DNA from: an uncultured Candidatus Saccharibacteria bacterium
GTDB taxonomy: Bacteria; Patescibacteriota; Minisyncoccia; Phycocordibacterales; GWA1-40-21
Assembly (NCBI GenBank): GCA_964587695.1
Contig: CAZPLP010000002.1
Location: forward strand, 1-34,313
DNA length: 34,313 nt
Direction: 5' to 3'
The notes beneath the pieces are model-generated. The model ran no database searches, was not told the DNA's origin, and worked only from the letters and a program-made list of their open reading frames with translations. Shown piece after piece: positions 5,031-34,313 of the stretch (positions are counted from its first letter, which is position 1; each line of letters begins with the position of its first letter). The position numbers and the translations under genes are program-made.

Positions 5031-7574
5031 ATGGCAAAATTTATTCATTTACATACTCATTCCCACTATTCTTTGCTCAATGCACTGCCTCAATTAAAAG
5101 AACTTATTAAAACAGTGAAGGATTTGGGCATGACATCTATAGCACTTACAGATGCTGGAAATATGTATGGGACTATTGAATTTTATCAAGATTGTAAAAA
5201 TAACGGGATAAAACCAATAATTGGAGTAGATTTTTACGTCGCCTCACGAACACGAAATGATAAACAGGGAGGAATAGATAATCGTAGAACCCGTTTAGTA
5301 CTCTTGGCAAAAAATGAAATTGGTTATAAAAATCTTATAAAACTTGTCACAGATTCATTTTTTGAGGGATTTTATTACAAGCCAAGGATAGACCATGAAC
5401 TTATAGAGAAATATTCTGAGGGGCTCGTTTGTATTATACCCCATTTTTCTGGAGAAACTTCGTACTCATTAAAAAACGGCGATACAGAAAAAGCTATAAA
5501 TGTTATAGCTTGGTATAAGAAAATCTTTAAAAATGATTTTTTTATAGAAATAACACATCATCCAGAAATAGAAGGACAAATTGAGCTTAAAGAAAAAATA
5601 ATAGAATTAGCAAAGGAAACCAAAACACCTCTTGTAGCAGCACATGATGTTTATTATTTACATCCGGAGGATAAAGCAGCTCGCGACACTCTTGTTCAAG
5701 TAAATTCTCATTCAGATTTTATAGATCGTGAACAAAAAGACAGCATTGATGATTTTTCTCTTATCTCATCAGAGACAGCAGAGCAATATTTCAAAGACAC
5801 ACCAGAAGCATTGGAAAACACTATAAAAATTGCTGAAATGTGTAATGTTGAAATTACACTTGGAAAAGATGCTTGGGTTTTTCCTGAATATTTTGTAGAA
5901 AGTGGTTTATCACATGATGAAGAATTAAAAAGGCTTGCATATCTTGGGATAGCAAAAAGAAATCTTACACATTCAAAAGAAGTAATAGACAGAATTGAAT
6001 ATGAACTTAAAATTATTAAAGATAAAAAATATTCAAAGTATTTTTTAGTTGTATCTGATCTTTTGCGCTTTGCTACTGAAAATGGAATTTATTCAAACAT
6101 AAGAGGTTCTGTTGCGGGATCTATTGTTACCTATCTTACTGGTATTACAAAAGTAAATCCGCTTGAATATAAACTTCCTTTTGAAAGATTTTTAAATCCG
6201 GAAAGACCTTCTGCCCCTGATATCGACATGGACTTTGCCGATAATCGAAGAGATGATGTTATAAATTATACTAAACAAAAATACGGAAAAGAAAACGTCG
6301 CACAAATCGGAACTTTTGGCACCATGATGGCTCGTGGTGCTTGTCGTGATGTTGCAAGAGCAATGGGTTATCCACTTCCTCTTGCAGACAAAATTGCCAA
6401 ACTTATTCCAATGGGTGCACAAGGAAAACCCATGACTCTAAAAAAAGCACTTAGGGATGTATCCGAACTCAAAGACATGTATGACAATAGTAAAGATACG
6501 AAAACAATTATAGATATGGCACAAAAAATAGAAGGTTGTGCAAGACACATTTCGGTTCATGCCGCTGGAGTTGTTATTGCTCCTTCACCTCTTATAAACT
6601 ATGTTCCGCTACAATATGATACGAAAGGTGAAAATAAAATCATTACTCAATATGATATGGATTCTGTTGGAGAAGATGGCGTTGGACTTTTAAAATTTGA
6701 TTTTCTTGGAATTAAAAATCTTTCAATTCTTGCTGAAGCTGTTCGTCGCGTAAAAGCTATCGAAAATATTGATATAGATATCGAGGCAATTCCACTAGAT
6801 GATAAACTCACTTATGAACTTTTAACAAAAGGAGAAACAACTGGACTTTTTCAACTAAACGGCCAGGGGATGACTAAATCTTTAAAAGAATTAAAACCAA
6901 CAAATGTTCACGATATAAATGTTATGGTCGCACTTTATAGGCCCGGACCAATGGACAACATACAAGAATATATTGCAAGAAAGCATGGTCTTAAAAAAAC
7001 TTCTTACCTCCACCCAAAAATGAAAGACTTTCTTGATACAACTTTTGGAGTACTTGTTTATCAGGATGATCTCTTAATGACTGCTATAGAAGTTGCTGGA
7101 TATACTTGGGGTGAAGTTGATAAATTTAGAAAAGCTATTGGAAAAAAGATACCGGAGGAAATGGCAAAGCAACATGTAAAATTCGTTGAGGGTTGTATTA
7201 AACATGGAGGTATGACAAGTAGTAAAGCAGAATCACTATGGAATTTGTTTGAACCATTTCAAGGTTATGGTTTCAATAAGGCACATGCAGCAAGTTATGG
7301 ACGCGTCGCATATCAAACTGCATATATGAAAGCAAACTTTCCTGCTATTTATATGTCTGCCGTTCTTACTGCAGATTCCGGAGACGTAGAAAAAATTGGT
7401 GAATTTATGGCCGATTGTAAAAAAATGGGAATTCCAGTTTTGCCTCCGTCTGTTAATGAAAGTTACAGAGATTTCACGACTGTTAAAACTCCAGGTGCAG
7501 ATGTACATTCAGCTGGAATTGATCGCGACAAAATCCGGTTTGGACTTACAACAATAAAAAACTTTGGCGAATAG
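5031..7574 (+). CDS. dnaE: DNA polymerase III alpha subunit, PHP plus polymerase core; ends at an in-frame TAG
   Basis: PHP motif HLHTHSHYSLL, PDIDMDF, and the palm/fingers blocks (GLLKFDFLG, YRPGPM, FNKAHAASY). The frame stops at TAG 7572..7574 in the middle of the conserved IKNFGE-x-IxxxIIEER region. Confidence 0.85.
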   Translation: MAKFIHLHTHSHYSLLNALPQLKELIKTVKDLGMTSIALTDAGNMYGTIEFYQDCKNNGIKPIIGVDFYVASRTRNDKQGGIDNRRTRLVLLAKNEIGYKNLIKLVTDSFFEGFYYKPRIDHELIEKYSEGLVCIIPHFSGETSYSLKNGDTEKAINVIAWYKKIFKNDFFIEITHHPEIEGQIELKEKIIELAKETKTPLVAAHDVYYLHPEDKAARDTLVQVNSHSDFIDREQKDSIDDFSLISSETAEQYFKDTPEALENTIKIAEMCNVEITLGKDAWVFPEYFVESGLSHDEELKRLAYLGIAKRNLTHSKEVIDRIEYELKIIKDKKYSKYFLVVSDLLRFATENGIYSNIRGSVAGSIVTYLTGITKVNPLEYKLPFERFLNPERPSAPDIDMDFADNRRDDVINYTKQKYGKENVAQIGTFGTMMARGACRDVARAMGYPLPLADKIAKLIPMGAQGKPMTLKKALRDVSELKDMYDNSKDTKTIIDMAQKIEGCARHISVHAAGVVIAPSPLINYVPLQYDTKGENKIITQYDMDSVGEDGVGLLKFDFLGIKNLSILAEAVRRVKAIENIDIDIEAIPLDDKLTYELLTKGETTGLFQLNGQGMTKSLKELKPTNVHDINVMVALYRPGPMDNIQEYIARKHGLKKTSYLHPKMKDFLDTTFGVLVYQDDLLMTAIEVAGYTWGEVDKFRKAIGKKIPEEMAKQHVKFVEGCIKHGGMTSSKAESLWNLFEPFQGYGFNKAHAASYGRVAYQTAYMKANFPAIYMSAVLTADSGDVEKIGEFMADCKKMGIPVLPPSVNESYRDFTTVKTPGADVHSAGIDRDKIRFGLTTIKNFGE

Positions 7575-8303
7575 ATTTCTAGAGTAATAATTGAAGAAAG
7601 AAAGAAAAATGGAAAGTTTACTTCCCTTTCAAATTTTCTTGAGAGAATTATGGACAGAAATTTAAACAAAAGATCTCTTGAGCCTCTTATTAAAACTGGT
7701 GCACTAGATGAGTTTGGTGATCGTGGTGTCATGCTCGCAAATTCTGAAAATCTTTTAAAATTTAATAAGGAGCTCAGTAAAAAAGATCAAAATCAAGATT
7801 CACTTTTCGGAATCTTTGATGGTGTATCTGCAGATACAGGAAAAATACAAGAAGCTTTCACACTTGAGCCAGCACCAAATGCAACAATGAAAGATAAACT
7901 CAACTGGGAAAAAGAATTGCTCGGAGTATATATTTCTGGACATCCTTTGGATAAATACAGAAATGCTTTGGATAAACAAAAAATAAGCATACAAAGAATT
8001 AAAAATTTACCAAATACTGAATCAGCCGAAGCAGAAGCAATAAAATCACAAATTGATGCTGGTCAACCAATCGGCGGAATCATCGAGGAGGTTCGAGAAA
8101 TAATGACTAAAAATAACGAGCCAATGGCATTTATAAAGCTTGCCGATTTTACTGGCTCAATAGATGCCGTAGTCTTTCCAAAAACTTATGCACAAATGAA
8201 AGATTCTATTAAACCCGACAAATGTATTGCAGCTATTTGTAAAGTTTCAGAAAGAAACGGAGAAATGAGCTTGATTATTGAGAGGTTGAAAGTACTAGAG
8301 TAA
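7575..8303 (+). CDS. dnaE: DNA polymerase III alpha, C-terminal continuation (HhH plus OB fold), in the same frame as 5031..7574; first ATG at 7650
   Basis: The codons directly after the TAG read ISRVIIEERKKNGKFTSLSNFLERIMDRNLNKRSLEPLIKTGALDEFG, which is the canonical DnaE segment following IKGVGE. Confidence 0.7.
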   Translation: MSRVIIEERKKNGKFTSLSNFLERIMDRNLNKRSLEPLIKTGALDEFGDRGVMLANSENLLKFNKELSKKDQNQDSLFGIFDGVSADTGKIQEAFTLEPAPNATMKDKLNWEKELLGVYISGHPLDKYRNALDKQKISIQRIKNLPNTESAEAEAIKSQIDAGQPIGGIIEEVREIMTKNNEPMAFIKLADFTGSIDAVVFPKTYAQMKDSIKPDKCIAAICKVSERNGEMSLIIERLKVLE

Positions 8304-8335
8304 AATCTTAAATATTGTCCTAGATTTTGTTAAGC

Positions 8336-8364
8336 TTGACTTTTGTTTATCGCAAGTATATTAT
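8336..8364 (+). promoter_or_regulatory. Near-consensus sigma70-like promoter with no protein-coding gene downstream on the plus strand
   Basis: TTGACT (8336..8341), a 17-nt spacer, then TATTAT (8359..8364). Confidence 0.35.
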
Positions 8365-8377
8365 AACACTATAAAGT

Positions 8378-8421
8378 GCCGAAAGGCTCCGAGAAACCCC
8401 GCAGAAATGTGGGGTTTCGAG
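8378..8421. terminator. Two GAAA-loop hairpins between the convergent dnaE and mazF-like genes (terminator and/or small RNA body)
   Basis: gcc-gaaa-ggc (8378..8387). An 11-bp stem at 8393..8403 / 8408..8418 with loop gaaa, followed by gagtttct. Confidence 0.5.
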
Positions 8422-8424
8422 TTT

Positions 8425-8826
8425 CTATAGGAAAGATTTTAATTTCTCTTTTATCTCTAATACTCTCTGATATTCTAATTCATATAATTTTCTTTTTAAT
8501 CTTTTAACACTTATCAATTTCATTTGTGCCAGTATAGCTGAAACTTCTTTATTATTTACATCAGTATAATTAAAATAAAAATCAATTTTTTTCTGTTTTG
8601 TAGATAAAGGAATCGCCCAAAACATTTTGTTGTTAAACTTTTTAATTACTAAAATTGGCCTGGAATAATTATCCCCGCTTCCATTCTGTTCAAAACCGAT
8701 ATTTTCACCAAGATTACTCATCCAAACTTCTCCTTCTTTGGGAAATTTATCTGGTTCATCGACAGAAGAATCTATTATCTTTTTTAAATTATTCCATTTA
8801 TCAAAATCTTTTTGCATGATAAACAT
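8425..8826 (-). CDS. MazF/PemK-fold toxin-like protein
   Basis: GEVWMSNLGENIGFEQNGSGDNYSRPILVIKK, AIPLSTKQKK and SAILAQMKLISVKRL align block by block with E. coli MazF (GDLIWVDFDPTKGSEQAGHRPAVVLS, CVPCTTQSKG, ALADQVKSIAWRAR). The track start at 8853 is a TTG overlapping the RT. The ATG at 8826 (MFIMQKDFDKW) or at 8817 is more likely. Confidence 0.75.
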   Translation of the reverse strand: MFIMQKDFDKWNNLKKIIDSSVDEPDKFPKEGEVWMSNLGENIGFEQNGSGDNYSRPILVIKKFNNKMFWAIPLSTKQKKIDFYFNYTDVNNKEVSAILAQMKLISVKRLKRKLYELEYQRVLEIKEKLKSFL

Positions 8827-8845
8827 TCTATCATCTACATACCCA

Positions 8846-9838
8846 CTATCCAAGTAAATTTAAAATTTTATTTTTCAATTTAATCGCATTTCCATGACTC
8901 AACATTCCCAAATACGATTGCACGGTTTCCTCTTTATCACTCTCCTTTAATTTCCTAAACATCTTTCTTTTTGTCGCTGTTCGCAATACTCTATGTTTTG
9001 GAAAATGCACCCAGCCGAGAATATCAACTCCCGAAGCCAGCGTTTTGAGAAATAGTTTATTCGGATGCAATGTTAATTTAAGTTTAATACAAAGAAAATC
9101 ACTAATTTTTAATATTGCATTCTCAAGCCAAGCTTTATCCTGTGAAAGAAAAACGAAATCATCAGCATATCTAATATAATATTTTGCTTTCAATTTATGT
9201 TTTACAAATTGGTCAAATTCATTCATATAAATATTTACCAAAAGCTGAGATGTAAGATTTCCAAGAGGCAAACCCTTTCCTTTTTCAGTAGAATAAAAAC
9301 TTTGTATGATTTCGGTTAAAACAGACATTATATCTTTATCATATATATAATTATTTAATATTTTCAAAAGAATTTCTTGGTCTATTGAAGCAAAAAACTT
9401 TCTAATGTCGCACTTTAAAACCCAAACTGTTTTTGTATTATTTTTAGATACTTTATTTGAAAAATATCTGAATCTATCCATCGCTTTATGTGTCCCCTTT
9501 CCAACCCTGCAAGAATACGAATCGGCAATAAATGTTTTATCAAAAAATGGATACAGTTTTCTGTATAAAGCATGGTGTAATAGTCTGTCTCTCACTTTTG
9601 CCTTATGTATATTTCTTGGCTTTGGGTCAGAAATATTAAATGCTTCATATAAAGAATGTTTATAGGTTTTATTTTTTAATTCCGTGTGAAGTGAAATAAT
9701 ATTGCTCATCAAATGCCTTTGAAACTCCTCTACATCTTTGCGATCTTTTTTACCTACAACAAATTCTCTCCACGCTTCTAGCAGATTTTCCATTTCAATG
9801 ATATCTTGATAATTATTATTAAATTGAATTTTGGACAT
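8846..9838 (-). CDS. DGR-type reverse transcriptase
   Basis: YADD catalytic box (9158..9169), the SYSCRVGKGTHKA block and the LPLGNLTSQLLVNIY (xGxxxSQ) motif. Its 330-aa size fits DGR RTs. It is adjacent to the TR/VR pair. Confidence 0.9.
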   Translation of the reverse strand: MSKIQFNNNYQDIIEMENLLEAWREFVVGKKDRKDVEEFQRHLMSNIISLHTELKNKTYKHSLYEAFNISDPKPRNIHKAKVRDRLLHHALYRKLYPFFDKTFIADSYSCRVGKGTHKAMDRFRYFSNKVSKNNTKTVWVLKCDIRKFFASIDQEILLKILNNYIYDKDIMSVLTEIIQSFYSTEKGKGLPLGNLTSQLLVNIYMNEFDQFVKHKLKAKYYIRYADDFVFLSQDKAWLENAILKISDFLCIKLKLTLHPNKLFLKTLASGVDILGWVHFPKHRVLRTATKRKMFRKLKESDKEETVQSYLGMLSHGNAIKLKNKILNLLG

Positions 9839-9859
9839 AATTATTACAACATAAAATAT

Positions 9860-10256
9860 ATGACTTTGATGCCCCCCCCCCGAAAAGAAACTGCTACCAC
9901 TACTACAAAAAGTAAAAACTGCTTATATTCTTTGGTATGAATATTATCAGATTTTGCCAAAACCCCACAGATATTCTCTAGGTAATAGAATTGATACTTT
10001 GTTTATAGAAATAATAGAAGCGATTTCTGTTGCAAGTTTCCTTCCCAAAGAAGAAAAGCGTTCTTATATTTCCATTGCCATCAGAAAACTTGATACACTA
10101 AAAATCTTGATGATGGTTTTGTGGGAAACAAAATCTTTAGATAATAAAAAGTATATTGCTCTATCACTCCAAACAGACGATATTGGAAAAATGCTCGGAG
10201 GTTGGAATGGACAGATATTAAAACAAAACTCTCCCGCAAAAGCAGGAGAGAAATGA
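9860..10256 (+). CDS. avd: Avd-like accessory variability determinant (four-helix bundle), with the frame interrupted at a C10 tract
   Basis: ATG 9860 (or 9869), then C10, then the remaining 125 codons (124 sense codons plus TGA) in a different frame. One fewer C gives MTLMPPPEKKLLPLLQKVKTAYILWYEYYQILPKPHRYSLGNRID...IGKMLGGWNGQILKQNSPAKAGEK (131 aa). The C-terminus resembles Bordetella phage bAvd GRILGSWIARVNRKGQAGK. As assembled, only a TTG at 9954 opens the frame. Confidence 0.75.
9872..9881. repeat. Homopolymeric C10 tract
   Basis: Ten consecutive C read directly from the sequence, in an otherwise AT-rich region, immediately after ATG 9869..9871. Confidence 0.95.
10215..10250 (-). terminator. 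Hairpin plus U-run immediately downstream of the TR on the minus strand, antisense to the avd 3' end
   Basis: The minus strand reads ctctcc-t-gc tttt gc-g-ggagag (10250..10229), followed by ttttgtttt. Confidence 0.45.
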
Positions 10257-10261
10257 TGTGA

Positions 10262-10398
10262 TTTGCGAGCGAAAAAGAAGCGATTGTTGTCATTCCACTT
10301 GTTGTCGTCGTTCCCATTGTTGTTGTTCAACCACGAATCCGAATCGTTCCTGTTACAGTTGAAAAGCTTGAGGTTGCCATCACGGTCGCGTATTGTTT
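10262..10398 (-). repeat. DGR template repeat (TR)
   Basis: 137 nt homologous to 10750..10886. In the VR frame it reads TIRDRDGNLKLFNCNRNDSDSWLNNNNGNDDNKWNDNNRFFFARK, rich in AAY codons and preceded by an in-frame TAA. Confidence 0.9.
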
Positions 10399-10746
10399 AG
10401 AATCCTTCCTTACCACCACCCATTGAATGCACCACAAGGGTACTTCATTTTTCTAGCACGGAATACCGTGAAGAAAAATTGGTCGCTCTCAAGGTTGTAT
10501 CGAATTTGATATATTAAATATCCTAGATTCTAAACCAAGTAACTTCATTTTTTGAAGGACTACATATAACACTCTATTCAAAATCTTAATCGTGAATAAT
10601 CTCGATATATGGATACTAATTTCGGTAGCAAAAAATCGTAATCGTTTGCATAGTCACCTACTCTCAACAATATTTTAGCACGAATTAAGTATTAAGGAAT
10701 AAGAAAATAAGGGCTAGATTTAAGAATCTAAATTATAAGTTCTAAT

Positions 10747-12687
10747 TTACTTGCGAGCGAAAAAGAAGCGATAGTTGTCATTCCACATGTGGCCGTCGTT
10801 CCCACGGCTGCTGTACAACCACGAAGCCGAATCGTTCCTGTCACAGCTGAAAAGCTTGAGGTAGCCAAAACGGTCGCGTATAGCTTCCATTGCAATATTT
10901 GTCCAATTACCACTTTTTTCATAATTTAAACGGATTGTTGGAGCAAGTTTAGCTGGAACAAGTTCAAAATTATTTTCTTTTGCCTTTTCTTTAATATCTG
11001 CATAAGTATGAACTTCTGTATCACCAAAAAGTTCACCAACTGAAATAGATACAATTTCATAGGAATTATTTAGTTTTTCTTTCCAGTCAACTTTAGTCAA
11101 CATATCTTTTGAATAATCACTAATTTTATAACCCTCTTCTTCAAGTTTTTTAATTGCTATTTTATCAGAAGTGATTTCTTTATCAGGAATAATTTCTTTC
11201 AAAAAAACTTTTTGTTCTGGAAATTTGGAATAAATGTGTTCAATATTTTTTGGTAAAGATTTTAGAACTTTTGGATTGAATTCTCCAATGTATGCTTTAG
11301 TATTTTTATTTATTTCTTTCTCAGAATAAGCGATTTGATTTGGTTCACATTCAATTACAACAGGGGCATCTTCTTTGGGATTTCTTTGTGAAATGATTTC
11401 TTCAATTCTCGGATCTCTTTGATAACCGAAACCTTCTATTTTAGAATCTATTTCATATATGAACTTGAGCTCGTCTTTTGTTAGTTCTGGTTTTAGATAT
11501 ATTTTTTCTTTAGTTTCTTTGTCTTCTTTAAAGCTTTTCTTGTAAATAGCAGTCATGTCTTTCATATCTTTCGATATCTTCTGATATTTCTCTTTTCCCG
11601 GAAGTTCACTCATCTTCTTTTCAGCAATTTCTGTCATATTTCCTTCGAGATTTTGTTGATTATCTGCAACACCTCTTGTTTCGCCAATCTGATCTCCTTG
11701 CATACGAATAGCGATTCTTGGAATAGAAGGTTTGTTTTGTTTGTCCAATGTATAGTAAACATAGAAGTCTCCCCCTTTAAGATGAGTTTCTGCCGTGCCA
11801 TAACCTTTTGTACACCAAGCTACACCTTTATTTTGTAAAGATGACCATAGAGCTGTTGGGTCTGTTCCTTTCCCGTATTTAATCCATTTACCTTCTGTGA
11901 TTTCTCTCATCTCTGGGGTAATTTCTCCAGATTGTCTTATTGCTTCAGAATATTGTTTGGCAAAAGAAATCTTAGCGAAGTTTGCTACTTTTTCTTTAGT
12001 GAGCAATTCATTTTTAGGAATATCTCCATTTGCAGATTCTTGTTGAGCTTCTTGAAGATTTTTGAGCATCTCTGCATCTTTGTCGGCTTCAATCATTTGT
12101 TCAATATATGCGAGAGCTCCTCTGTCTATATCGGGAAATAGTTTTATGCTTCCTTCCGATCTTTTTGTGAATTCACCTTTATCTTTGTCATAATCTCCTA
12201 AATCTAAAACATTTCTGAAAGCATAATAACGAAACCACACAGGATATGGTTCGTTTGCATCAGAAAGATATGAAATCCAATTGTCTAGGGATTTTTCCAA
12301 ATCGGTGACTGCGATATCTCCCCTTTGATCCATTTGTTCTTCCTCATAGCGTGCTTCAATACCCATATCCCTAGCGGCTCTTTCTTCAACTCTTCTTGCA
12401 CCTTCGGCCAGGGCTTCTTTATTTCCTCGGACATATTTGTTCATGACCATTTCCCTGAGCAAAGACAAAGCTCGTGGACGAGTTTCTGACCCGTGAGTTT
12501 TCTTTGGTTGTTCTTTATTTGGATCTAGAACTAGCTTTTCTAGACGATCTAAATAATTTTTTATTTTAGCTTCTGGATCATTAGGCACTTTCTCGCCTGT
12601 GCGTTCTTCTGTACGCTCGGCTGATGCTTCCACTTCTGGAGCATTGTGTAGGTCGTATTTCTTTTTGAGGAAGTCGAAGTTTTCCAT
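10747..12687 (-). CDS. DGR target protein (646 aa) with a C-terminal variable, C-type-lectin-like end (...RFFFARK)
   Basis: Long ATG-initiated ORF whose 3' end is the VR. The N-terminus is hydrophilic, with no signal peptide or TM segment visible. The N-terminal ~570 aa are not recognised. Confidence 0.85.
   Translation of the reverse strand: MENFDFLKKKYDLHNAPEVEASAERTEERTGEKVPNDPEAKIKNYLDRLEKLVLDPNKEQPKKTHGSETRPRALSLLREMVMNKYVRGNKEALAEGARRVEERAARDMGIEARYEEEQMDQRGDIAVTDLEKSLDNWISYLSDANEPYPVWFRYYAFRNVLDLGDYDKDKGEFTKRSEGSIKLFPDIDRGALAYIEQMIEADKDAEMLKNLQEAQQESANGDIPKNELLTKEKVANFAKISFAKQYSEAIRQSGEITPEMREITEGKWIKYGKGTDPTALWSSLQNKGVAWCTKGYGTAETHLKGGDFYVYYTLDKQNKPSIPRIAIRMQGDQIGETRGVADNQQNLEGNMTEIAEKKMSELPGKEKYQKISKDMKDMTAIYKKSFKEDKETKEKIYLKPELTKDELKFIYEIDSKIEGFGYQRDPRIEEIISQRNPKEDAPVVIECEPNQIAYSEKEINKNTKAYIGEFNPKVLKSLPKNIEHIYSKFPEQKVFLKEIIPDKEITSDKIAIKKLEEEGYKISDYSKDMLTKVDWKEKLNNSYEIVSISVGELFGDTEVHTYADIKEKAKENNFELVPAKLAPTIRLNYEKSGNWTNIAMEAIRDRFGYLKLFSCDRNDSASWLYSSRGNDGHMWNDNYRFFFARK
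10750..10886 (-). repeat. DGR variable repeat (VR), the last 46 codons of the target gene
   Basis: It differs from the TR at 18 positions. Of these, 17 are sites where the TR has A on the coding strand. Confidence 0.9.
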
Positions 12688-20687: not shown

Positions 20688-23057
20688 CTAGCGTACTTGC
20701 CAACCTTTATTAGCATTCATTTTATTTGTAATTTTTTCCATAACCGCATTAACTTCTTCATCAGAAAGAGTTTTTTCATAAGACTGAAATATGATTCTGT
20801 AAGCATACGAAGTTTTCTTTGAACCATCTTCAAAAGATTTGGTAAAAACATCAAAAAGTCTATTTTTTAACATAAGTTTCCCGACCTCTTTTTCTATAAT
20901 AGAAAACACTTTTTCAGATTTTGTGCCTTCCGGTGTAAATACAGCAATATCACGTATCATAAATGGGTATTGGGAAATCTTTTTATATCTTTTATTAGCA
21001 TCGCCAATTTCTTTAAAATCATATTCTGTTACTTCGGGTAATTTTTCAAGTATTTTTTTAAAATTGAACTCTGCAATATTCTCTATTTTTGTAGAAGTTT
21101 TGATTGAAACTAGGTCAATATTAAATTTTTCTGAAAGATTTTTTACTATAGCGTCTAGTACCTCATTTTCCTTTGGTTTTTTCAAACCCAATGGGTTTTT
21201 AATACCGATTACAAAATTACTTTCTTCACCACTATTTTTAAAAACGTGTCCAAATTCAAATATTTTTATTTGTAGCATATCTACAAGCTCAGAATACCTA
21301 GAGTTAAATTCTAAGCAATTATTTAAGCCATCGCTAAGATTTGTTCGCAAAAATTTTCTCTCTGGAGACATCGGATTAGCAAGTTCTATTTCCCCTTTAT
21401 CTGTAAATGAATAATTTATTACTTCAGAAAAACCTTTTTCATAAAGAATTCTTCGAATTTTTTCTTTGTAAGCAAAACCCTTTTCTATTTTTACTTTTTC
21501 TTTATTTTTAGAAATAGAAATGTCTTTTATTTTATCGTAGCCATATATTCTACCTATTTCTTCAGCCAAATCTTCTTTGATTCTCAAATCCAATCTTTCA
21601 TCTGGTACTGTGATAACAAATCTTTCTAAATTTTCTGTCATCCTTCTATAACCGACTATGTTTTTGAATCTTTCACTTTTATCTAAATCTTCAATAACCA
21701 CTTTATCAAAAAGCATAGTTGCATGTATCACTTTTCCATTACCTAAATACAAACCACAGTGATCTACACCTTCTGGAACATTGGTACCAGGCAAAAATTC
21801 TAAAGTATTATAAAAAATTTTACCTACTCCTGCATTAGCATAAATGGTATCACCAGGAATCAAATCTCCTTTATTGATTTTTTTACCAAACACATATTGA
21901 TCAACAGACATTCTAGGGATTTGAATTCCAGCCTGAACAAAAAGATAACTTACAAAACCAGAGCAGTCAAAAGATTTGGGCGCATCATATGAAATACTTG
22001 CAGCACGTTTATACGGAACCCCAATAAGTGTTTGTGCAATTTTTAATACTTCATCAATTGGTTTTACTTTCTTCCATTCAAATCCAAATTTATCAAAAAT
22101 TTTCTCAATGTCTGAATCTTTTATTTCAACGCCTATAATAGAACTTGCTTCTTTTGAAGAAATCCCTAGTATAAATTTATTAGCTCTTTTTGGATAATTA
22201 TCTACTATTTCTCCAACTTTTGTCAGTGATGTCCCGGCAATTTCTACAATAAGTTTACTAAGTATATCCATTGCTTCACCTGCAACTTCCACTGAAAAAT
22301 CATTTTCATATCTTTTTGATGCATCGGTCTGGATTTTCAATCTTTGAGAAGTTTTCCTTATTTGTACTGCATCAAAACTCGCTGATTCAAGAATGATATT
22401 TTTTGTACTTGTTTCAAGCTCAGCAAAATTTCCTCCTTTTATTCCGGCGATTGCTAGTGGATTTTCACCGTCCGTAATAAGTAAAACATTTTCATCAAGC
22501 TCAACATCTTTTTTGTCTAAAGTAATTATCCTTTGCCCTCTATATGCGTTTTTTACTACAATTTCATTACCAATTTTATCTGAATCAAAAGCATGCATTG
22601 GCTGACCAATTTCAAGCATTACAAAATTTGTGGCATCAACAATATTATTTATTGATCTTTGTCCAAGTGTTTCAAGTTTAATCTTCAACCATTTAGGCGA
22701 GGGACCAACTTTAATATTTTCTACAACTCTACCAATATATCTCCTACAGAGTTTTGGATCTTCAATTTTTACCTCAAGCTTTTTTAAAGTGTCAGAAACT
22801 TTTATATCTTTAAACTTCCTGGAATACAAATTGACTTTTAAGTTTGCCACAACTCCAATTTCTCGAGCTATACCTCTATGACAAAGACAACTGTGATTCA
22901 AGTTCGGTGTAGTTTTTGCATCCATCACAATATCCCCCCCAACTTTTTCTAGTCCTTCCACCTCCATTGAATGCATGGTTAATAGGTCTCCAGTTTTTTC
23001 TGCTGCTGGAGCCTTACCATTCAAATATTCATTTAACCAATTGTAAGAAACTTTCAT
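20688..23057 (-). CDS. pheT: Phenylalanyl-tRNA synthetase beta subunit with an inserted NlpC/P60 domain
   Basis: B3/4 domain (PLAIAGIKGG), B5 (VPDERLDLRIKEDLAEEIGRIYGYDKI) and a C-terminal FDX-ACB-like end. Residues ~331-478 carry NlpC/P60 motifs (GVPYKR, FDCSGFV, PGD, HCGLYLGNGKVIHA). Confidence 0.9.
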   Translation of the reverse strand: MKVSYNWLNEYLNGKAPAAEKTGDLLTMHSMEVEGLEKVGGDIVMDAKTTPNLNHSCLCHRGIAREIGVVANLKVNLYSRKFKDIKVSDTLKKLEVKIEDPKLCRRYIGRVVENIKVGPSPKWLKIKLETLGQRSINNIVDATNFVMLEIGQPMHAFDSDKIGNEIVVKNAYRGQRIITLDKKDVELDENVLLITDGENPLAIAGIKGGNFAELETSTKNIILESASFDAVQIRKTSQRLKIQTDASKRYENDFSVEVAGEAMDILSKLIVEIAGTSLTKVGEIVDNYPKRANKFILGISSKEASSIIGVEIKDSDIEKIFDKFGFEWKKVKPIDEVLKIAQTLIGVPYKRAASISYDAPKSFDCSGFVSYLFVQAGIQIPRMSVDQYVFGKKINKGDLIPGDTIYANAGVGKIFYNTLEFLPGTNVPEGVDHCGLYLGNGKVIHATMLFDKVVIEDLDKSERFKNIVGYRRMTENLERFVITVPDERLDLRIKEDLAEEIGRIYGYDKIKDISISKNKEKVKIEKGFAYKEKIRRILYEKGFSEVINYSFTDKGEIELANPMSPERKFLRTNLSDGLNNCLEFNSRYSELVDMLQIKIFEFGHVFKNSGEESNFVIGIKNPLGLKKPKENEVLDAIVKNLSEKFNIDLVSIKTSTKIENIAEFNFKKILEKLPEVTEYDFKEIGDANKRYKKISQYPFMIRDIAVFTPEGTKSEKVFSIIEKEVGKLMLKNRLFDVFTKSFEDGSKKTSYAYRIIFQSYEKTLSDEEVNAVMEKITNKMNANKGWQVR

Positions 23058-33971: not shown

Positions 33972-34313
33972 TTACTTAAAATCAAAATTATTTTTAACTT
34001 CACGGGAAACTCTTTCAATCTTTTTAATTCTTCTTTTATGTCTTTCTTTGTTTGAAAAATTCGTTGTTAGCCATTCTTCAATAGCAGCTTCTGCTTGTTT
34101 TGTTTTCAAAAATCGAGCTCCTAAAGAAAGGATATTGGAATCATTATGTTCCCTTCCTAATATAATAATATCATTCTTTGAAAAAAGGTTTGGATTGCCA
34201 TAAAAAACCATTGCGCGAACATTCGGATACCTATTTGCAACCATCGCTTCACCTTGTCCAGAGCCGCCCAAAATAATCCCAATATTTTTTTCTGGATTTA
34301 AGGCTACAGCTTT
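33972..34313 (-). CDS. rpiB: Ribose-5-phosphate isomerase B, C-terminal part; the gene runs off the right edge
   Basis: The frame is open to the window end and reads ...ILGGSGQGEAMVANRYPNVRAMV..., an RpiB/LacAB pattern (compare CGTGIGMSIAANKVPGIRA). Confidence 0.75.
   Translation of the reverse strand, partial: KAVALNPEKNIGIILGGSGQGEAMVANRYPNVRAMVFYGNPNLFSKNDIIILGREHNDSNILSLGARFLKTKQAEAAIEEWLTTNFSNKERHKRRIKKIERVSREVKNNFDFK

Follow-up and report, generated by a model that had tools for sequence, protein, structure and literature searches.

Is a run of ten C between the start codon and the body of a gene a genetic switch, or is it an error of assembly? The question is raised by avd, the accessory gene of a diversity-generating retroelement (DGR), in a contig of an uncultured Candidatus Saccharibacteria bacterium (CAZPLP010000002.1 of GenBank assembly GCA_964587695.1). 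The whole contig, complete at 34,313 nucleotides (nt), was analyzed and is called the window below. In its avd gene, two ATG codons are directly followed by exactly ten C, and the frame that they open is not the frame of Avd. An earlier note, made from the sequence alone, had proposed both answers. The comparison of orthologous avd 5' ends gives strong support to the switch, and the recurrence of C10 in other assemblies and in relatives speaks against the error. We consider it likely that C10 is a real and hypermutable simple-sequence repeat (SSR), which acts as a phase-variation (contingency) switch of the DGR via avd and is found here at an OFF length.

Reading frames at the 5' end of avd

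The layout described in the earlier note was recovered in the sequence, in the translations, and in the list of open reading frames (ORF). The frame of the two ATG closes after 26 codons. The Avd frame, which translates as *L*CPPPEKKLLPLLQKVK...KQNSPAKAGEK* (asterisks are stops), opens at 9870, past the TGA at 9867-9869, and its earliest ATG, GTG, or TTG is the TTG at 9954 (Table 1). This TTG is residue 29 of the 128-codon frame, and the ORF that it opens, the only conventional one in this frame, lacks the first helix of the protein. Our reading of the frames agrees that, with a tract of C9 or C12, translation from the ATG would run through the full Avd of 131/132 amino acids (aa). The tract is also close to the start of the divergent reverse transcriptase (RT) gene, at 33 nt from its ATG (9838, - strand), where the note had given ~35 nt.

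The length of the tract is far above chance expectation. C10 is the longest G/C run of the window, which has 32% GC; it is followed by a single run of seven, and all others are of five or less. CCC is the least used proline codon in the genes of the window (8%), hence codon usage does not account for the run: given PPP, the probability of three CCC is ~5e-4.

The window has the components of a DGR, namely an RT gene, a pair of template repeat (TR) and variable repeat (VR) with adenine-specific differences, and an Avd-type accessory protein. In an alignment read by eye, ~14 of the ~15 differences between TR and VR are at TR adenines, and VR ends 2 nt from the stop codon of the target gene. The conceptual Avd matches the Pfam family bAvd (PF22296, E=3.4e-9) with 37.6 bits, slightly under the 40-bit cut-off, and its homologues carry PF22296 as pre-annotation. 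A sequence profile search of the PDB with Avd gave no match, but the fold search succeeded. The AlphaFold model (predicted local distance difference test, pLDDT, of 88.9) has four helices (residues 10-26, 31-55, 60-86, and 92-119), and Foldseek matches it to the Avd of Bordetella phage (4dwl, template-modelling (TM) scores 0.80/0.92, root-mean-square deviation 1.4) and to the Avd of the DGR ribonucleoprotein structure 8ub7. The gene lies in reverse orientation between TR and RT, as in architecture B3, a layout that we also found in L003, L058, and L069 (L numbers are sampled relatives, see below). B3, written TR-(avd)-RT, accounts for 90% of the DGR of the candidate phyla radiation (CPR) in the set of Wu et al. 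2018 (PMC5758913).

Two other readings of the frame were rejected. A start at TTG 9954 would remove helix 1 (residues 10-26) from a confident four-helix model, and orthologues have this helix. The earlier note had allowed that orthologues might begin at the equivalent of 9954 without it; they retain helix 1 and do not start there. If TGA were a sense codon (code 25), the frame would extend further upstream, but this is at odds with long housekeeping ORFs that are intact under table 11. The stop codons used in the window are TAA (17), TAG (5), and TGA (2).

A simple repeat at the same site across Patescibacteria

A protein search with Avd retrieved 2,543 relatives. Most of them start as M-x(0-20)-PP(P)-x-K/R-LLPLLQK, and a few are called short, e.g., P0003, which starts as MLPLLQK. 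GTDB species genomes and metagenomes contributed 80 loci each to our sample. The counts below are for 143 unique loci, and every locus was anchored at the codon for the first L in LLPLLQK. All are Patescibacteria-type and include Paceibacterota, Uhr-, Azam-, Nomura-, Wolfe-, Adler-, Buchanan-, and Andersenbacteria, and Kazan. All the evidence, for the window as for this family, consists of consensus assemblies.

A simple repeat occupies the homologous site in 122 of the 143 unique loci. It is a poly-C of at least six nucleotides in 103 loci, a tetranucleotide repeat in 14 (CCAA, CAGC, CAAT, GTCA, or GAAC), a dinucleotide repeat in 4 (GA or CA), and a heptanucleotide repeat in one (CAGCAAT). 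No repeat was found in 20 loci, and the T6 run that is the only repeat of the remaining one was treated as spurious. The poly-C lengths are C6 (3 loci), C7 (7), C8 (12), C9 (29), C10 (41, the mode), C11 (8), and C12 (3). Counting C itself, there are nine motifs, with units of 1, 2, 4, or 7 nt only and none that is a multiple of 3. The repeats are also strongly concentrated: G/C runs of at least seven occur 3 times in 489,630 nt of flanking sequence and ~100 times at the site, where ~0.1 would be expected by chance.

The repeat is always placed between the avd ATG and helix 1. In relatives with a short leader, the ATG is 3-15 nt ahead of the tract, and it is in frame in L092, L146, L052, L129, and L168. 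For example, L168 reads ATG ACC ACC CCC CCC CGA, i.e., MTTPPREKLLP with C9. In relatives with a long leader, the repeat precedes the RT start by ~9-20 nt on the RT strand, and the avd ATG is antisense within the first codons of RT, at roughly RT codon 7-8. Two of the repeat-free loci, L025 and L096, have interrupted proline codons (CCGCCGCCG or CCGCCACCG) and are in frame. Several repeat-free alleles, these included, look like stabilized tracts. In L065, a run of N adjoins a (CAGC)n repeat of at least 59 nt. Longer avd repeats can break short-read assemblies, so that their lengths are lower bounds.

A relative of 120 aa from the same 90% cluster (P0124, loci L165, L166, and L167) has another N-terminus, no tract, and no adjacent RT. 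Its neighbors are a YafQ-toxin/ribbon-helix-helix pair, a tRNA-synthetase gene, and, downstream, an unannotated ORF of 334-464 residues. Judging by this context, P0124 may be a rearranged or orphaned avd.

Frames are random where there is a repeat and kept where there is none

We called a locus ON when the Avd frame can be entered from an ATG 5' of the repeat with no stop codon in between. Among 99 poly-C loci, 33 are ON and 66 are OFF, which is the one third expected for a random frame (binomial p=1.0). The OFF state occurs in both directions, with 27 loci at +1 and 43 at +2. The tetranucleotide loci are ON in 9 cases and OFF in 5. Repeat-free loci are ON in 18 cases and OFF in one, a distribution that differs from that of poly-C loci (Fisher p=5e-7) and from one third (binomial p=3e-8). 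The repeat-free loci are thus an internal control, which indicates that translation starts at the upstream ATG and that avd stays in frame when it is unable to switch. A start placed 3' of the repeat, which would make the repeat part of the 5' untranslated region, likewise predicts one third of loci in frame. It was rejected, since the gap between repeat and helix 1 is only 0-21 nt and has no conserved start codon, and since the upstream ATG leads into the Avd frame in 18 of the 19 loci that lack a repeat.

In spite of these frames, the body of the gene is maintained. The Avd ORF is intact from anchor to stop in 155/155 loci (82 OFF, 67 ON), with lengths of 115-129 codons and one atypical case of 132. 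Among the window, L003, L004, and L005, which all have ATG-C10 and are all out of frame, dN/dS is 0.017-0.043 at dS of 0.8-2.3. Such low values in a subclade that is entirely OFF indicate that the protein is needed throughout, although the consensus alleles are out of frame.

Tract and VR change between near-identical elements

We then compared pairs of independent assemblies with at least 99% identity. L093 and L118 differ over 1157 nt by nothing except C9 (ON) versus C10 (OFF), and L163 and L005 over 2346 nt by nothing except C11 versus C10. Between L079 and L101 (2180 nt), C11 versus C10 is accompanied by one mismatch. The pair L069/L156 (1981 nt) has (GTCA)n of 30 versus 24 nt, and is less clean, with many differences near a contig end. 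In L058/L149 (3380 nt), C9 (ON) faces C10 (OFF), and there are six substitutions, all in VR and all at positions of TR adenines. Finally, L003 and L083, the nearest relatives of the window, have C10 in both and differ over 3384 nt by three substitutions, again all in VR and at TR-adenine positions. These adenine-templated changes suggest that the elements of these relatives are active. From the aligned sequences, VR and the tract appear to be the fastest-changing sites of the elements. VR is identical in the window and L001.

Taken together, avd has several features of an SSR contingency locus: a non-triplet repeat in the 5' coding region, its local enrichment over background, length polymorphism in near-identical relatives, and an alternating frame with selection on the gene body.

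A proposed switch and the points against it

On a C10 allele, ribosomes starting at ATG 9860 or 9869 would stop after 26 codons and the Avd frame would be left without a start of its own, which is the OFF state. Slipped-strand mispairing at replication would alter the tract by at least one C. Instability is known for G/C runs from a length of about 8. A change to C9 or C12 would fuse the ATG to Avd, giving the ON state. Avd and RT would both be needed for cDNA synthesis, as in characterized DGRs. The length of the tract would in this way decide, heritably, reversibly, and for each cell, whether the target gene receives a copy of TR in its VR: ON cells would diversify the target, and a slip to OFF would fix a successful variant. 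Avd is described as essential for retrohoming (PMC5758913; PMC10053308), so that DGR mutagenesis would depend on the length of the tract. We infer that slippage is the mechanism, which codon is the start, and that out-of-frame alleles yield no functional Avd, and Avd is presumed to be essential in the DGR of the window by analogy with the Bordetella phage system. The consensus alleles, which are mostly OFF, would accord with a process of diversification followed by locking, in which lineages persist once they have slipped to OFF.

Several observations weigh against this switch. Some of the metagenome-assembled genomes may come from long reads, where homopolymer lengths are less reliable, and several contigs have low coverage. 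The subclade of the window is nearly all out of frame (the window, L003/L083, L004, L005, L163, L164, and L007). Its sole ON locus is L168, with C9 and 88% protein identity, which is the nearest short-leader allele in frame. The strain of the window shows C10 in all three of its assemblies, with no other length seen. The versions of this exact Avd that C6, C9, or C12 would give, with at most three possible starts, were absent among 15 billion proteins, a collection in which only the truncated call of 100 aa is found. The start codon of avd is itself deduced, and a scan around the tract gave no promoter signal above shuffled expectation, no element across the tract, and no clear promoter or Shine-Dalgarno sequence. 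Lastly, L003 and L083 both have C10, yet their VR differ at three adenine-templated positions. Given this change, Avd could be made from C10 alleles.

Alternative explanations

The last of these points leads to the alternative that survives best, even if we regard it as unlikely: recoding or attenuation, by which C10 yields a low and set level of Avd through a +1 ribosomal frameshift on AUG-CCC-C or through slippage of the RNA polymerase, and the tract tunes dosage. The tRNA-Pro slips readily (+1) on CCC-C, especially beside a start codon, and PPP stalls ribosomes. On C9-C12, slippage of the RNA polymerase may also occur. The Avd frame of the window is indeed +1 relative to that of the ATG, and ATG-C10 is common to the window, L003/L083, L004, and L005 despite synonymous saturation. 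In addition to the VR change between L003 and L083, the class of OFF that a +1 ribosomal shift can rescue, OFF(+2), is the commoner one (43 versus 27). The family as a whole argues otherwise, as its frames are random, OFF in both directions, and simply in frame in one third of the loci. Orthologues have (CAAT)n, (GCCA)n, (GTCA)n, (GA)n, or (CA)n at the site, and we know of no ribosomal or transcriptional slippage on such di- or tetranucleotide repeats. Alleles with C9 and C11 and identical flanks also occur. A uniform programmed frameshift as the rule of the family was rejected, because neither the frame offset nor the slippery motif is conserved among orthologues. Recoding is nevertheless partly compatible with the switch, as a leaky OFF state.

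The second half of the earlier note, a consensus error hiding an ordinary intact avd whose tract is in truth C9 or C12, is in our view very unlikely. Long homopolymers are prone to error, and at least one base of the window is suspicious (the dnaE codon described below). Two further assemblies encode an identical RT. The contig of 4.7 kb in the first (L001, ERZ4201038) differs from the window by one base across 6513-10956, and the contig of 1.7 kb in the second (L002, ERZ4223250) by one single-nucleotide polymorphism; both have C10. At 3-4x coverage of these two contigs, their agreement on C10 is supportive, not decisive. C10 is also found in the separate relatives L003/L083, L004, and L005, and independently assembled relatives are equally out of frame. 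Its presence in three assemblies, together with the comparative data, makes a one-off error unlikely. An error would also leave unexplained why two thirds of the 99 poly-C loci are out of frame when 18 of the 19 repeat-free loci are in frame, and why 5 of the 14 tetranucleotide loci are OFF. Tetranucleotide repeats are not known to be prone to indels in base calling.

Some other differences between these assemblies were observed. A dnaE-like gene for DNA polymerase III alpha (5031-8303, + strand) has an in-frame TAG at 7572-7574 (..TIKNFGE*ISRVIIEERKKNG..), where the codon of L001 is GAG and its dnaE is called as continuous over 630 residues up to the contig end. Judging from these codons, the TAG probably reflects an erroneous base or else a rare nonsense allele, and not recoding. 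At 6380-6512, at the end of the L001 contig, there are 32 differences from the window in ~130 nt of dnaE, with 4.4 kb otherwise identical. Variation between strains or recombination in this segment may explain them, as may a chimeric contig end. Halfway through avd, the L002 contig diverges completely from the window (positions 1-91 of L002, beyond 10084 of the window), either by a rearrangement or by a misjoin in a contig of 3x coverage. The G/C run that comes second in length in the window (22934-22940) reads G7 on the coding strand and is in frame (VGGD), near the 5' end of the - strand gene at 20688-23057. We assign this gene to phenylalanyl-tRNA synthetase beta solely on the basis of its N-terminus. 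The G7 could serve as a control homopolymer for read error rates.

It is less probable again that the repeat acts on the other strand, 10-35 nt upstream of the RT start, by modulating the expression of RT or of the DGR RNA, with an incidental effect on the avd frame. The distances would suit such a role, both in the window and in the long-leader relatives. On the other hand, the nine unrelated motifs have nothing in common but instability and a non-triplet unit, and the latter matters solely for a reading frame. The repeat always separates the avd ATG from helix 1, 18 of 19 repeat-free alleles keep avd in frame, and no promoter-like spacing element spans the tract. The least credible explanation, in which avd is a decaying pseudogene of a dead DGR, can invoke the lack of a usable in-frame start codon and the identity of VR in the window and L001, and is contradicted by the selection analysis (a body intact in 155/155 loci and dN/dS of ~0.03 across saturated synonymous divergence), by the adenine-specific TR/VR differences, and by the recent VR change in the nearest relative.

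Other features of the element

The features of the window that concern the DGR are listed in Table 1.

Table 1. Positions of the DGR, of its avd gene, and of the tract in the window
Feature	Positions	Strand	Remarks
DGR reverse transcriptase (RT) gene	8846..9838	-	divergent from avd; Pfam RVT_1 E=1.4e-22
Candidate avd starts, ATG 9860-9862 and ATG 9869-9871	9860..9871	+	mutually in frame (MTLM), abutting the tract on its 5' side
Out-of-frame product of the C10 allele	9860..9940	+	MTLMPPPRKETATTTTKSKNCLYSLV, 26 codons, TGA 9938-9940
Avd reading frame	9870..10256	+	128 codons and TGA 10254-10256, from translation
C10 homopolymer, likely a hypermutable SSR	9872..9881	+	reads G10 on the RT/TR strand
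TTG-start ORF, 100 aa	9954..10256	+	sole conventional ORF in the Avd frame; recorded product of the contig
Hairpin and U-run, terminator-like	10229..10250	-	just 3' of TR; antisense to the avd C-terminal codons KQNSPAKAGEK
Template repeat (TR)	10263..10398	-	sense strand as for RT and target, opposite to avd
Variable repeat (VR)	10751..10886	-	3' end of the target gene; 88% identical to TR
DGR target gene, 646 aa	10747..12687	-	VR at the C-terminus; no Pfam match

On the TR/RT strand, the hairpin reads CTCTCCTGC-TTTT-GCGGGAGAG and then TTTTGTTTTA, and a homologous site is present in 135 loci of the family. Its outer stem and U-run are kept family-wide, and the inner stem varies, with changes that are apparently compensatory. 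The C-terminus of Avd encoded opposite to it is near-invariant (KQNSPxKxGEK). From this pattern of conservation, the C-terminus seems to be under a dual constraint, shared with an RNA element whose role would be to terminate the TR RNA or to give it structure.

The spacer between the RT start and the avd ATG (9839-9859) contains, in the short-leader subclade, the motif TTACAACA(C/T)AAAA, which is also found in L005, L007, L047, L050, L095, L121, L122, and L168. On the RT strand it reads TGTTGTAAT just ahead of the RT ATG and resembles an extended -10 element, from which a near-leaderless RT mRNA might be made. At the other end of RT, a PemK/MazF-like toxin ORF (8425-8853, - strand, Pfam E=2.3e-8) overlaps the RT 3' end by 8 nt, is also present in L001, and looks co-transcribed with RT.

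Implications and comparison with known systems

Extending the case of the window to its relatives, we lean towards the view, on balance and with some reserve, that DGR hypermutation in Patescibacteria is governed by a second hypermutable element, the avd repeat, which has been recruited with at least nine motifs, would stochastically activate diversification in a minority of cells while the others stay locked, and would establish a two-tier regime of "diversify, then lock". To our knowledge, little has been described on how cells control the timing of DGR mutagenesis. It is costly to mutate a working receptor without control, and a repeat in avd would be a simple and testable answer in the most DGR-rich part of the tree of life. 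If correct, no genetic means of regulating DGR activity would have been described before it, and it would be evidence that contingency loci operate in CPR bacteria. It predicts that most cells are locked OFF, with rare ON cells exploring sequence space. It would also explain why avd is called as a truncated protein of 100-121 aa in the clade (90% cluster), and could account for some of the DGRs scored as inactive in population surveys. Annotation pipelines miscall avd genes, and assemblies break at the longer repeats, as in the N-gap of L065. The distance of ~900 nt between tract and VR means that single long reads can link the state of the switch to the diversity of VR.

Classical SSR contingency loci include lic1A of Haemophilus influenzae, with (CAAT)n, and the poly-G/C tracts in genes of Neisseria, Campylobacter, and Helicobacter. 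The avd loci resemble lic1A-type loci in having a non-triplet repeat just past the start, where slippage shifts the frame, and a random frame next to a conserved body; the CAAT motif is even common to lic1A and some avd loci. They differ in what is switched, an accessory protein of a retroelement and not a surface structure or a restriction-modification enzyme, and in their hosts, which are free-living or episymbiotic Patescibacteria whereas lic1A-type loci are found in host-adapted bacteria. We know of no description of contingency loci in Patescibacteria. Reversible mutator switches are also known, in which repeats mediate the inactivation of mismatch-repair genes. There too, a hypermutable tract toggles mutagenic capacity, but it affects the genome-wide rate, whereas the mutagenesis gated by avd would be limited to ~136 nt of one gene.

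The general concept of SSR contingency loci is treated in PMC4081817 and PMC6625227, and PMC6265453 and PMC10123105 deal with phase-variable DNA methyltransferases, or phasevarions (modA and others). Like in phasevarions, an SSR within the ORF of a cytoplasmic factor would switch a downstream, population-wide program; the outcome for avd would be mutagenesis of one target gene and not epigenetic control of many.

The closest functional comparison is avd of the Bordetella phage BPP-1. It shares the four-helix-bundle fold, the position beside TR and RT, and the adenine-specific differences between TR and VR. However, sequence identity is ~14%, and avd of BPP-1 is co-oriented with TR and brt whereas that of the window is inverted (B3). 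We found no repeat tract or phase variation described for BPP-1 avd in the literature. Gene order and orientation in the window are identical to those of CPR-type B3 DGRs (PMC5758913), in a text that does not contain the word "homopolymer" and mentions "frameshift" once, unrelated to avd. More generally, full-text searches of the literature gave no link of DGR or avd with homopolymers, SSRs, or slipped-strand switching, and an earlier mention in Paul et al. 2017 (Nat Microbiol), the main paper on CPR DGRs, is possible. The newness of the system lies in the thing that is switched, a DGR accessory protein, and in its CPR hosts, while the mechanism itself is of a known kind.

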